64,000 bases of DNA. Source: a virus (lineage: Duplodnaviria > Caudoviricetes). Made by a program: the position numbers and the translations under genes. The stretch covers positions 32,001 to 96,000 of the IMG/VR virus record IMGVR_UViG_3300049988_000245; one strand, written 5' to 3'. The notes under the pieces are model-generated. The model was not told the origin of the DNA. It did not search any database and worked only from the letters and a program-made list of their open reading frames with translations. This document shows, piece after piece, positions 10,459-59,530 of this stretch; within the stretch, counting starts at the first letter, position 1, and each line of letters opens with the position of its first letter.

Positions 10459-10740
10459 ATGATGATGGAAGAATCAATGCGTAACTTCATCGTTCTCGCC
10501 GAAGCTTATATTGCAGCACCAGAGGACGATGTGGTTGAAACCGTTCAGGAGACCGTGGTTGAGCCTGCGCCGAGCGCATTGATTCTCCACGATCTCGATA
10601 TTCTTGTCACGCGCATGCGCACGTTTATGGAGTCCGAGTCGGGCGATTTCGGTCTGGGCGTGGAGACGGGCATGCAACAGGCGGCAGATATGATCGATAA
10701 TCTGATTCGTCGATATAATACAGGTGATCACGTTGAATAA
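10459..10740 (+). CDS. putative head-associated protein
   Basis: TAAATA at 10449; leader MRNFIVLAEA. Confidence 0.5.
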   Translation: MMMEESMRNFIVLAEAYIAAPEDDVVETVQETVVEPAPSALILHDLDILVTRMRTFMESESGDFGLGVETGMQQAADMIDNLIRRYNTGDHVE

Positions 10741-10987
10741 GAAATTCTCTGGTCTACTCGAAGAGTTGACGAACTATGCACCAACGCGAGATCGCGATCT
10801 ATTCATTGAAAGTCGCGCCCAACAGGTGATTGCGTCAGCATCACATCTCATCAATCTTATCGATGAGAACTACGACGACCAGACTGCGGATGAACTAAAA
10901 CGCAGACTGTTTAACTCGATCAAGAGCGGAGACGAAGGCAAGTTCCGCAGAAAGATTGGACAAATTCGCGAATCCAAGAAGGGGTAA
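10724..10987 (+). CDS. conserved jumbo-phage hypothetical protein
   Basis: Coupled ORF in the late cluster. Confidence 0.5.
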   Translation: MITLNKKFSGLLEELTNYAPTRDRDLFIESRAQQVIASASHLINLIDENYDDQTADELKRRLFNSIKSGDEGKFRRKIGQIRESKKG

Positions 10988-10992
10988 ACTCC

Positions 10993-12120
10993 GTGAAGAC
11001 TGACGAAGAACTCGTAAACGAGATCATGGAAGCCGGTTACGGCCACTCCAAGCCGAGCCTTCTCGGCACGGCGGCCCATTACGGTGCAAAGATGGCCGCC
11101 AAGGGTATCTACAAGGGCGTCAAGGCGGCCAAGAACGCCTACGACAGCCACCCGAACGTGCAGATGGCCAATCAGGCTGAGCTTCGTCAGAACGTCTACA
11201 GGAAATTGAATCAGGATTTCGCCCATTGGGAGCAGCGCATCTCCGGCTCGACCGGCGTTGAGCCGACCGAGGCAAATCTCCTGGCCTTCGCCAAGGAAGT
11301 CTACGGGTTCGATGCCACTTCGGTGCTGAGCACGATCCGGACCGCACCGAAGACGGCTACTACCCCGAAGGCGGCGCCTGCCGCTCCCGGTAAGGCTCCG
11401 GCGGCCCAGGCTGGGGAGATCGCACCCGCGCCCGCACCTGCCGCCAAGAACCCCAGGGTCGTGCAGCAGGACAAGGACGGCAAGCCGTTCTACAAGCACG
11501 ATTCCCGTGGGATCAACTTCGACGATCCGACGCTGAATGATCCGACAAACTCTCCGATCACCACGAACCAGCAGCGCAACCAGCAGCGCTTCCCCGAGAA
11601 GCCCCAGCAGTCCAAGAAGGGCAAGCCACACAAGAAGGAGTCGATCGATCTCTCGAAGTCGTTCAGCCAGATCGTCAAGGAGGCGGATGCGGCGGCGGTG
11701 AAGGCTCAAGCGGCCGAGACCGACAAGCTCAATACCGAGCAGACCCATGCGTTCTTCGACGGCATGGCTCGCCTCGTCCTGGGCAACCCCCAGATGGCCC
11801 AGAACTTCATCCAGAACGGCCAGATTGGCGCACCAACGGCGACGAACACCCAGGCGAGCGCTCCCGCGCAGAAGGGCGCTGGCAAGGCTCCTACGGCTCC
11901 GGCTGAAGCTGGTCCGGGCAACTCCGCACTCAAGGCGGAACTGAACAAGATCATCACCAAGATGGGTGCAAAGATCGACCCCTCGGTGATCCAGTCGCTC
12001 ACCGCGAAGCTCAAGGAGACGCCCGACCTGAAATCGGCCGTCGATCTGGTCGATTCTCCCCAGGAGATCGCAGCGGCCCGTGCCATCATGATCGCCGTGA
12101 TCATCGCGACGGAAATGTAA
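10993..12120 (+). CDS. putative internal head protein, Ala/Pro-rich
   Basis: GTG start with RBS; low-complexity linkers; late cluster. Confidence 0.5.
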   Translation: MKTDEELVNEIMEAGYGHSKPSLLGTAAHYGAKMAAKGIYKGVKAAKNAYDSHPNVQMANQAELRQNVYRKLNQDFAHWEQRISGSTGVEPTEANLLAFAKEVYGFDATSVLSTIRTAPKTATTPKAAPAAPGKAPAAQAGEIAPAPAPAAKNPRVVQQDKDGKPFYKHDSRGINFDDPTLNDPTNSPITTNQQRNQQRFPEKPQQSKKGKPHKKESIDLSKSFSQIVKEADAAAVKAQAAETDKLNTEQTHAFFDGMARLVLGNPQMAQNFIQNGQIGAPTATNTQASAPAQKGAGKAPTAPAEAGPGNSALKAELNKIITKMGAKIDPSVIQSLTAKLKETPDLKSAVDLVDSPQEIAAARAIMIAVIIATEM

Positions 12121-27342: not shown

Positions 27343-27575
27343 CTGTGCTCTCCATAGTCGTTGAATTCGATCCGGCGGGTCTTCCAGGGCTTCCACATGA
27401 GGAGATCGGCGCAGCAGAAGCCGACGCCCCCGGCGAGGTAGGAGTACCAGTTGATCCCGCCAGCCGCCCAGGGAAGCCACGAGATGGCAAAACCGATTGG
27501 CGCGGTCACCGAGGTTCCGATGAGGAATAGCGCGGTCTGCCGGTAAATCTCGTACTTGAGCGGCGTGTTCAACAT
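27339..27575 (-). CDS. small membrane protein
   Basis: Two hydrophobic segments; directly downstream of the tRNAs. Confidence 0.5.
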   Translation of the reverse strand: MLNTPLKYEIYRQTALFLIGTSVTAPIGFAISWLPWAAGGINWYSYLAGGVGFCCADLLMWKPWKTRRIEFNDYGEHR

Positions 27576-27597
27576 GAAATACCCCGGATGAATAAAA

Positions 27598-27672
27598 TGG
27601 CGTCCCCTCAGGGATTCGAACCCTGGATCGCGGAGTTAGAAGCCGCTGCCTTAACCGCTTGGCTAAGGGGAC
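27598..27672 (-). tRNA. tRNA with CUA anticodon (amber suppressor-like), Gln-type D-arm, encoded CCA
   Basis: GUCCCCU/AGGGGAC acceptor, G73, D-arm GCC-AAGCGGUUAA-GGC, anticodon arm GCGGC-UUCUAAC-UCCGC, T-arm CAGGG-UUCGAAU-CCCUG. Confidence 0.85.
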
Positions 27673-27678
27673 ATACGG

Positions 27679-27752
27679 TGTCTCTGGTCGGGCTCGAACC
27701 GACGACCAATGGAGTTAGAAGCCACCGCTCTGACCAACTGAGCTACAGAGAC
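27679..27752 (-). tRNA. second tRNA with CUA anticodon (amber suppressor-like)
   Basis: GUCUCUG/CAGAGAC acceptor, A73, D-stem GCUC/GAGC, anticodon arm GUGGC-UUCUAAC-UCCAU, T-arm GUCGG-UUCGAGC-CCGAC; CCA not fully encoded. Confidence 0.85.
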
Positions 27753-27881
27753 ATCCCGTACTTATGTGCTAAACGATCCGGTGATTTTCGTCAAACCAAT
27801 CTGATCTGGATGGTTAACGACCCACCTGAATCTCAAACGATTGCCGCTTAAATATTAGAGACATCCAACTGAGGTATTACC

Positions 27882-28004
27882 ATGGATTCACTGTTTAACG
27901 TCTTCATTGCCGACAAGCTGATCTTCTACCCGTTCGCCGCACTGGTGTTCTACTTCCTCTGCCTCGAAGCAGTCCACAAGACGAAGATCGTTCTACGTCG
28001 CTAA
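27882..28004 (+). CDS. 40 aa hydrophobic peptide (not in the track)
   Basis: GAGGT RBS, TAAATA near 27849; MDSLFNVFIADKLIFYPFAALVFYFLCLEAVHKTKIVLRR. Confidence 0.45.
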   Translation: MDSLFNVFIADKLIFYPFAALVFYFLCLEAVHKTKIVLRR

Positions 28005-28011
28005 AACGACA

Positions 28012-28042
28012 AGCCCGACCAAAGCAATGCTCTGGCCGGGCT
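28012..28042. terminator. hairpin between the convergent peptide gene and pqqA
   Basis: AGCCCGACCAAAGC/GCTCTGGCCGGGCT imperfect stem. Confidence 0.45.
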
Positions 28043-28086
28043 ACACTCAGTACGACGTACAGTTCCGTCGAATTTGTATTGCAGTC

Positions 28087-28176
28087 TTAGTTGAAGGTGT
28101 CGATCTCAGCCGAATCGTAGCTGGTGACTTCCATACCAACGCAGACTTCCTGAACGATAGGGGCAGACCACTTCAT
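28087..28176 (-). CDS. pqqA: pyrroloquinoline quinone precursor peptide PqqA
   Basis: MKWSAPIVQEVCVGMEVTSYDSAEIDTFN (29 aa, ExxxY intact); AGGAG RBS; TTGAAA-N17-TATTAT promoter upstream. Confidence 0.93.
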   Translation of the reverse strand: MKWSAPIVQEVCVGMEVTSYDSAEIDTFN

Positions 28177-28348
28177 AGCGTTTCTCCTTAGTGACGTATG
28201 TTAACGTCTCGTACATAATAAGGTTGCGCGCAATTCTTTTCAAGCACAAAGATTCTTAGGAAATCATTATTTTCGCATTCCCATCAAATGATGAATTTTG
28301 CGACAAAATGCCATCTTTTGATGCACCCCAAATATCTGATTTTGGAGA

Positions 28349-28468
28349 TAACGGGCGTCCGCATCGACCCTGCTGCACATGGTGTTGCAGGCGCCCGGAC
28401 CGCTCCCAGAGTCGTTTTGGGAGCGGTCACTAGGGGGTCAGCCAACCTAAGGCTGGACGCCTCCGTTA
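28349..28468 (+). ncRNA. candidate multibranch structured RNA
   Basis: Closing stem TAACGG-GCGTCC/GGACGC-CCGTTA; 11 bp inner hairpin; G-U pairs favour +. Confidence 0.35.
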
Positions 28469-29041
28469 CGCGGCGAGAGCCACATCCTTGACCTCCTTCG
28501 GTGTGATCCGAGCCGAACCGTCTGCGTTCAGTGTCAGCGTACAGTGGCGGAAACGGATCGCACCCTTGGTGGAGGGGTGATCGGGGGTCTCTCGGGTGGT
28601 CCCGGTGGTGGCCGAGAAGTCCACGTGATGGACGTAGTAGGATTTGCCCTTCGTCTTGAGCACCCAGGCGGGGAGCGAGGGGAACTCAATCGAGCCCTTG
28701 TTGAAGTGGAAGTCCACCATGGGGCAGTTTTCCACCGTCAGGGGGAAGCTTGCCATCTGATCGGCCATCTGCTGGTCCATCGCCAGGATACGCGCCCAGC
28801 GCTGCTTGGCCGAGTCGAGAAGCGTCATCGTCTTGAACGCCATGATGGATTGGAAATGAAGCTCGCGCTGGAGCTTGCGCGTGGCATCCGCACCGGGGTT
28901 GGTCCGGGCCATCCGCTTGAGCTTCGCCCGATCGGCGCGAATCTTCTTTGTCTGGTGCGCGTAGAGGGCGCGCCACGTCTGGCGCCAGGACTTGTACTGC
29001 TCGGGGGTGGTGAAGGTCGGGTGCATTGCGTGAGCGGACAT
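28466..29041 (-). CDS. hypothetical phage protein
   Basis: AAGGA RBS before MSAHAM; C-terminal YYVHHVD...TRETPDHPSTKG. Confidence 0.55.
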   Translation of the reverse strand: MSAHAMHPTFTTPEQYKSWRQTWRALYAHQTKKIRADRAKLKRMARTNPGADATRKLQRELHFQSIMAFKTMTLLDSAKQRWARILAMDQQMADQMASFPLTVENCPMVDFHFNKGSIEFPSLPAWVLKTKGKSYYVHHVDFSATTGTTRETPDHPSTKGAIRFRHCTLTLNADGSARITPKEVKDVALAA

Positions 29042-58831: not shown

Positions 58832-59162
58832 TAAAATCGTCGGACGATTCCTCGCGTCCGACAACATGCCGGAGCTTGTCCCAAATCTCCTCGGTGAGGA
58901 CCATCGTCGTGCCATCGACGCGGTCGTAGAGTTCCGGGGCGATCTCGCAGAAAATCTCGACGAGAGGATTCCCGCGCATCCGGTCGATGGGGAGAAATCG
59001 ATTCTTCACCGCCCGGAACAGCATCTCGCCGGGATCGCGCTTGATTATCACGTGCGCGCGGAACGATATCGTCGTGCGAATCCGGTCTGCGCCGACGATT
59101 TGTCGGCCCTGACGATTCGGGATCAGCGCGATGATCTGAGGGGGCATGAATCCATGGTCCAA
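58773..59162 (-). CDS. hypothetical protein
   Basis: ORF downstream of the tmRNA. Confidence 0.45.
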   Translation of the reverse strand: MDHGFMPPQIIALIPNRQGRQIVGADRIRTTISFRAHVIIKRDPGEMLFRAVKNRFLPIDRMRGNPLVEIFCEIAPELYDRVDGTTMVLTEEIWDKLRHVVGREESSDDFIRSQQSARAGAPLKLTYPY

Positions 59163-59169
59163 ACATGGG

Positions 59170-59497
59170 TCCGGGGGCCGAAGCCCCCGGTTCTGTTTCT
59201 ACGGTTACCCTACCGCACGAAGATCACGCCGCGAGGCGGACTTCCATGGCAACGTTGTCGTTGACAGATATGTGTTTGAACAGTGCACGCAAACAGTTTC
59301 CTGCGTACGCAAGCCGTGTCTCAGCTTATGTCGCCTCGTGCTCCCCGAAGGAAGTCGATCTCTCTTGCCCCTTCACGCGCAATCGATCCCAAGTCGCCCC
59401 CATCAGGAGAACACTTCATGAAAGTGTGCTCATGGTGGAGGCGTGCGGATTCGAACCGCAGTGTTGCCGCGCTATCTCACAAGGTCTTCAACAGTGG
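59170..59497 (-). ncRNA. ssrA: two-piece (circularly permuted) tmRNA
   Basis: Acceptor piece ends UGCGG-UUCGAAU-CCGCA-CGCCUCC-A-CCA (59433); hairpin IVS 59402-59432; coding piece starts GGGGGCG (59401) with G3-U70; tag VNDNVAMEVRLAA* at 59265-59224. Confidence 0.92.
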
Positions 59498-59499
59498 GG

Positions 59500-59530
59500 T
59501 ATTTATAGCTGAGCGTCGGTGGAGTGTCAA
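59500..59530 (-). promoter_or_regulatory. tmRNA promoter (overlapping sigma70 and T4-late)
   Basis: TTGACA-N17-TATAAATA. Confidence 0.7.

Follow-up and report, generated by a model that had tools for sequence, protein, structure and literature searches.

A lone pqqA gene of Methylobacterium origin in a T4-like jumbo phage

Cyanophages that carry psbA, the gene for the D1 protein, bring a fast-turnover, consumed component of the host energy system rather than a whole pathway into the infected cell; the expression of psbA during infection has been shown experimentally, and both the protein and its pathway are unrelated to PqqA. It is established for the synthesis of PQQ that one PqqA is spent per cofactor and that PqqB to PqqE act as catalysts or a chaperone (for instance Barr et al. 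2016, cited by PMC7678222). Coutinho et al. 2020 (PMC7678222) reported a methanol dehydrogenase and PqqA in one Lake Baikal virus, which infects Methylophilaceae by prediction, and a 2026 study counted viral pqqA among phosphate-solubilisation genes (PMC13188868). A first-pass annotation of the DNA studied here implied that a phage pqqA was new; this was overstated, since viral pqqA has been in the literature from 2020 on (PMC7678222) and many viral contigs carry it. Our scan of IMG/VR for GFE.TMY returned at least 120 contigs, of which at least 118 hold intact PqqA ORFs of 23–25 aa, with at least 57 distinct peptides. Among the loci listed, no pqqB was found near these Methylophilaceae-type genes with an alphaproteobacterial PqqB query, for which there was no beta- or gammaproteobacterial positive control. 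The cultured OM43 phage Melnitz likewise has a 24-aa PqqA (MZ577097.1, 76134-76208, plus strand; Pfam 37 bits). Its gene ends 10 nt before a tRNA-Leu gene, is unannotated in the GenBank record, which has a hypothetical protein on the opposite strand instead, and goes unmentioned in the Melnitz paper.

Viral pqqA itself is thus known. The locus that we describe adds the 29-aa alphaproteobacterial type, a leaf habitat, a jumbo-phage carrier and an origin traced to orphan host arrays, and it is the first alphaproteobacterial phage-borne pqqA in the collections searched.

The pqqA gene and its phage setting

The stretch of DNA analysed, which we call the window, is 64 kb long and spans positions 32001-96000 of a linear IMG/VR record of 265,895 bp. 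Its minus strand contains an ORF with an ATG start and 29 codons (Table 1), the translation of which matches exactly the 29-aa peptide quoted in the first-pass annotation. The peptide scored above both curated cut-offs for PqqA, with 34.9 bits for Pfam PF08042 (cut-off, 21.1) and 35.1 bits for NCBIfam TIGR02107 (cut-off, 20), which bears out its naming as PqqA. Its length falls within the expected range of about 20–40 aa, and the Glu-X-X-X-Tyr motif that it was said to keep is present as E16-V-T-S-Y20. Four differences from Methylorubrum extorquens PqqA had been stated; the operon-type peptide found in Methylorubrum rhodinum and in several species of Methylobacterium is 25/29 identical to the phage peptide, in agreement with that number. 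The residues W3...P6 are in register with Methylobacterium-type host copies, a few loci having longer predicted N-termini, and the leader appears to be of the type recognised by PqqD. The phage pqqA is confirmed as a real, intact gene, and one that carries a practical caution, as its ORF escapes gene callers.

Table 1 Features at and around the phage pqqA gene (positions in the 64-kb window)
Feature	Position	Strand	Basis
pqqA ORF, 29 aa, crosslink pair E16 and Y20	28087..28176	-	Translation, profile matches, host alignment
Ribosome-binding site AAGGAG, 7 nt before ATG	28184..28189	-	Sequence; host homology starts at 28188
Sigma-70-like promoter TTGAAA-17-TATTAT	28215..28243	-	Consensus scan
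CTTG..ATTGCGCGCAA element inside the promoter	28224..28244	-	Matches host CTTGTATTGCGCCCAA; contains palindrome TTGCGCGCAA
14-bp G+C-rich hairpin followed by UGUCGUUUUA, likely terminator	28012..28042	-	Consensus scan, folding
Convergent hydrophobic 40-aa ORF, no family match, shares hairpin with pqqA	27882..28004	+	
Two tandem tRNA genes, anticodon CUA	27598..27752	-	Rfam tRNA, 64 and 57.7 bits

The gene had been proposed to form a stand-alone transcription unit, and the ribosome-binding site, the promoter-like site and the downstream hairpin were all located (Table 1). Nine of the 14 pairs of the hairpin are G–C pairs and a T-rich tail follows; the 3′ untranslated region of pqqA has a folding energy of -40.4 kcal/mol (z = -4.8 against shuffles). 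From these signals together, a unit with a single gene and a length of about 200 nt is predicted, and the convergent ORF is a neighbour outside it. The T4 late-promoter motif TATAAATA is absent upstream of pqqA; this and the sigma-70-type promoter suggest that the gene would be expressed early or in the middle of infection. A scan of positions 27400-28600 against Rfam identified two tRNAs and no other RNA family. The two tandem tRNA-CUA genes differ; by our own reading, one combines a Glu-like acceptor stem with an encoded CCA, and the other looks Lys-like. TAG is the rarest stop codon of the phage, ending 50 of the 437 predicted genes. Amber read-through by tRNA-CUA was considered and rejected: the two best TAG candidates look like separate genes with starts of their own.

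Matches to PHROG families across the record include a baseplate wedge protein (1106 bits), RIIA, the topoisomerase II large subunit, tail fibres, a virion structural protein, a DnaB-like helicase, ParB and HNH endonucleases. Judged from its genes, the record, which has 56% G+C, is a fragment of a T4-like jumbo phage. CheckV puts its completeness at about 57%, and our results on absent genes cover the 266-kb part. Neither a full-length capsid gene nor the large terminase was found in these 266 kb, and Gp23, of the T4 major capsid family, was seen as short pieces only, in small ORFs at 109647-110807 and 176017-176145 of the record; the missing terminase and the gp23 fragments fit a partial genome. 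The record also encodes a nicotinamide phosphoribosyltransferase (229822-231462, minus strand; PHROG 448, 510 bits), a second cofactor-supply gene.

pqqA lies within a run of minus-strand genes, with the tRNA pair downstream on the same strand. A Pfam search with the ten genes around it gave no family match, and one neighbour matches the phage 5′-3′ deoxyribonucleotidase family. Exact look-up of the upstream neighbour protein returned no match, scans for related loci with two neighbour proteins found no relatives, and megablast of 20 kb against GenBank phages gave no match. That the gene sits in a phage holds up, as PHROG matches, neighbours and bridging contigs place viral sequence on both sides of it.

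Host origin and a second phage copy

To trace the gene, we relied on a degenerate scan for CVGMEVT.Y with one genome per species, which gave at least 120 loci. Among the matches listed, true PqqA belonged to Hyphomicrobiales or to MAGs classified no further than Alphaproteobacteria or Proteobacteria, with one exception binned as Nakamurella on a short contig. The top-ranked peptides in this list were all from Methylobacterium, with 28/29 residues identical in M. haplocladii and one Methylobacterium MAG and 27/29 in M. bullatum, Leaf108, W2 and E-045. The phage peptide differs from the nearest listed host peptides at K2/T2 and D21/E21, and both variants are natural in Methylobacterium copies. 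DNA similarity between phage and host is limited to the ORF, where it ends at the stop codon, and 12 nt with the ribosome-binding site; the best nucleotide identity of the ORF among the matches listed is 94.4%, to a copy from M. oxalidis.

The closest of the listed host copies lie in tandem arrays of two to four genes, and the 8-kb loci around them contain no pqqB. Mean nucleotide identity to the phage gene, again among the matches listed, is 85.3% for such orphan copies and 81.8% for pqqB-adjacent copies, and 17 orphan copies, but none of the pqqB-linked ones, carry an S4/Q9/V11 signature. Because the nearest copies are unlinked, identity is higher and the signature is theirs, the donor was an orphan-array paralogue, and these comparisons identify the host orphan tandem arrays, not the pqqA of a pqqABCDE operon, as the source. 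The phage gene has no genomic link to pqqBCDE and neither do the closest listed host copies, so such linkage is not strictly defining for PqqA.

The host orphan arrays are themselves stand-alone units: their promoter region is highly conserved, and a terminator follows the last copy. Sixteen Methylobacterium arrays have TATGAGAAATATAAGT...CTTGTATTGCGCCCAA in common upstream of the first pqqA copy, which may be a regulated promoter. The phage element CTTGAAAAGAATTGCGCGCAA lies at nearly the same distance from the ATG as the host CTTGTATTGCGCCCAA, occurs once in the 266-kb record and was absent from all 100 shuffled versions of the window. In a general local alignment, the upstream regions of phage and host scored 23 (null, 17.4 ± 2.5; z of about 2.2), which is not significant alone. 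The promoter element was likely captured along with pqqA, a claim that turns on one 14-nt element. The phage hexamers TTGAAA/TATTAT are nearer the sigma-70 consensus than the host TTGTAT/TATCTT, the host hexamers being an inferred reading.

A single further IMG/VR contig was found with the 29-aa alphaproteobacterial type of PqqA. This contig, IMGVR_UViG_3300049988_000349 (18 kb; 62% G+C over the part examined), is collinear with about 16 kb of our record (30-46 kb) at 35–81% amino acid identity (66% for the helicase), and its pqqA, compared with ours, has another place among the shared genes and the reverse orientation to them. The encoded peptide is 28/29 identical to ours and passes Pfam. 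The alignment of the region upstream of this pqqA with host promoters is significant (33 against 18.8 ± 2.4), its terminator is similar to the host array terminator, and the gene is 96.7% identical to a copy from Methylobacterium sp. J-078 and 90% identical to the phage gene studied. Since each phage copy is nearer a host copy, separate captures or exchange with hosts are more likely than a single ancestral capture. A scan of viral contigs for VGMEVT.Y hit 27 unrelated proteins and no alphaproteobacterial-type copy beyond the one already known.

Between the two phage genes, seven codons differ synonymously and one non-synonymously, over 90 nt and possibly after separate acquisitions; if the two phages acquired pqqA separately, part of the synonymous excess is inherited from hosts. 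At third codon positions the G+C fraction (GC3) is 0.67 in the phage pqqA, 0.83 in host copies and 0.71 in the whole phage, and the three changes specific to the phage gene are all third-position changes to T. These patterns are suggestive of a pqqA that is resident in the phage under purifying selection, 90 nt being weak statistically alone.

The probable host is Methylobacterium, in lineages with orphan pqqA arrays. The first-pass annotation had read the gene as a pointer to its host, and this is upheld by the peptide and nucleotide relatives among the matches listed and by host pqqA contigs in the same samples. These contigs part from the phage sequence exactly at 28084-86 and at 28188, where homology ends, which places Methylobacterium in the samples. 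The window also encodes a permuted two-piece tmRNA (59133-59526, minus strand; RF04321, 77.3 bits; tag VNDNVAMEVRLAA) that is 87% identical to M. bullatum across 101 nt and 72% identical to M. soli across 278 nt; this similarity and the co-occurrence with Methylobacterium pqqA agree with a Methylobacterium host. The G+C content of Methylobacterium is usually well above the 56% of the phage, so the host link rests on gene content and not on composition. Our literature search found almost nothing on Methylobacterium phages; here pqqA allows the host of an uncultured jumbo phage to be assigned from sequence.

Proposed role and alternative readings

We propose that this T4-like jumbo phage infects leaf-dwelling Methylobacterium and captured pqqA from an orphan tandem array of its host, and that the ribosome-binding site and some of the promoter probably came along with the gene. 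The phage peptide would be processed by the host PqqD/PqqE, PqqB and PqqC and a protease, with E16 and Y20 crosslinked and excised to yield PQQ. Each cofactor made uses up PqqA and no other component of the pathway, so PqqA needs continued gene expression. Once a lytic phage silences host transcription, the peptide alone would run out, and pqqA alone would suffice to sustain the PQQ supply in infection and so keep the MxaF/XoxF methanol dehydrogenases, and hence energy generation, going. Profile searches of the 265,895-bp record found no pqqB, pqqC, pqqD, pqqE or PQQ-repeat dehydrogenase, which extends the earlier statement that the window holds no other pqq genes to the whole record, and no methanol dehydrogenase gene was found in the 266 kb; any benefit of pqqA would thus rest wholly on host enzymes.

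In a strain with a higher PQQ yield, pqqA1 and pqqA3 were expressed about 3.5-fold and 4.3-fold above the parent (PMC9851590). Methylotrophs have more than one pqqA copy, and the hosts among the matches listed have two to four in tandem. PQQ is a stable cofactor, and its supply is not known to be limiting within one infection cycle, which counts against the need for resupply. On balance we consider it probable that the phage carries a working pqqA that resupplies the consumed component of the PQQ pathway; its transcription, its processing and the benefit to the phage we infer. A testable idea follows, that the precursor peptide and not the enzyme level may limit PQQ-dependent energy metabolism in infection.

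The promoter element that the phage has in common with the host orphan arrays contains, in the phage, a perfect palindrome, TTGCGCGCAA. It could tie the phage copy to a host methylotrophy regulator, so that expression would be more than constitutive and precursor supply would follow methanol or lanthanide signals, a suggestion that we regard as unlikely. If it were true, then together with the Methylophilaceae phages it would make 'consumed peptide only' a convergent rule for methylotroph phages in two bacterial classes.

The alternative that survives best, itself unlikely, is that pqqA is a neutral passenger, a scrap of recently captured host DNA that gives the phage no benefit and awaits loss. 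Its identity to host copies, 94% at the nucleotide level among the matches listed, would fit this, as would its place in a variable region with tRNAs and genes without known relatives, and so would the finding that each of the two phage copies is nearer to a different host copy than to the other. However, the gene has an intact ORF, ribosome-binding site, promoter-like site and hairpin, its GC3 has moved to the phage value with the peptide retained, and the two related phages both carry pqqA at differing positions. Stand-alone pqqA also recurs in the at least 118 unrelated viral contigs, with peptides that are distinct (at least 57) yet conserved.

The first-pass annotation had also raised the possibility of a decoy or competitor, in which excess peptide occupies the host PqqD/PqqE or peptidase and thereby lowers host PQQ synthesis or diverts the pathway. 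The promoter hexamers, nearer to consensus than those read in the host, could mean overexpression. Yet the peptide is host-like at E16 and Y20, in its W3-P6 leader and in its tail, and the residues at positions 2 and 21 are each natural in Methylobacterium, with no mark of a poor substrate. We hold such a decoy to be improbable; resupply of the peptide by a helper gene fits the data better, because the substrate features are kept and the changes are within host variation and mostly synonymous.

More improbable again is that PqqA serves a phage enzyme and gives a product other than PQQ. The record does encode a radical SAM protein outside all curated families (476 aa; record 10554-11984, minus strand; core at residues 214-305), the best NCBIfam score of which is 40.7 bits against a cut-off of 265 and the N-terminal 200 residues of which gave no match. 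We tried it as a phage PqqE and rejected it, as it scored 19 bits to the PqqE model, for the generic core, against a cut-off of 381. Its gene is 49 kb from pqqA, it has no SPASM domain match, a PqqD-like recognition domain was not found in the record, and the peptide is unchanged from the host PQQ substrate.

The stretch was found in leaf and partly in silage metagenomes from several studies; none of the RNA runs contains the pqqA locus. A 452-nt contig from a run of another study covers 27915-28366 with zero differences, and low-depth contigs from a further study, which belong to a strain with 95-96% identity, cross the 3′ junction from the phage flank into pqqA. Abundant host pqqA contigs account for a depth spike at 28021-28254 and for loose ends at positions 28084-86 and 28188. 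An assembly chimera, in which host pqqA reads were merged into a phage contig, had been named as one way in which the locus could prove false, and the abundance of host pqqA in the same samples and a break inside pqqA in the Logan contigs of one run would be in keeping with it, but it can be set aside with near certainty, given the bridging contigs from other studies, flanks of phage sequence, a related phage with the gene and a pqqA sequence unlike every host copy retrieved.

Comparison with known systems

The nearest relatives of the locus are the orphan arrays of M. oxalidis, M. haplocladii, M. bullatum, M. soli, Methylobacterium sp. J-078 and others. They share with the phage a peptide identical at 27-28 of 29 positions, the S4/Q9/V11 signature, the same ribosome-binding site, the lack of a pqqBCDE link and, in part, the promoter element. 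In contrast to these arrays, the phage has one copy and not two to four, a GC3 of 0.67 and not 0.83, hexamers nearer the consensus, a different terminator and a phage genome around the gene.

The viral examples are more distant. Lake Baikal VP_266 (PMC7678222) also encodes PqqA, with a proposed support of host methanol oxidation, but it carries a methanol dehydrogenase, for which no counterpart was found in the 266 kb of our phage, and its predicted host is of the Methylophilaceae, whereas our phage has the 29-aa alphaproteobacterial type of PqqA. Melnitz and the at least 118 IMG/VR contigs resemble our phage in having a lone, short pqqA with no pqqB nearby, and the Melnitz gene adjoins a tRNA gene as ours has a tRNA pair downstream. 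Their type differs, with an RFGFEVTMY core, low-G+C aquatic viruses as carriers (mean, 38% G+C) and an independent acquisition. Taken together, the alphaproteobacterial and Methylophilaceae cases indicate that methylotroph phages gained pqqA independently in two bacterial classes, and they would widen the range of phage-borne pqqA, which includes aquatic phages of Methylophilaceae, to a Methylobacterium phage; on leaves, this genus is the main consumer of methanol. By analogy, the logic may be that of psbA, with our phage carrying the consumed component alone.
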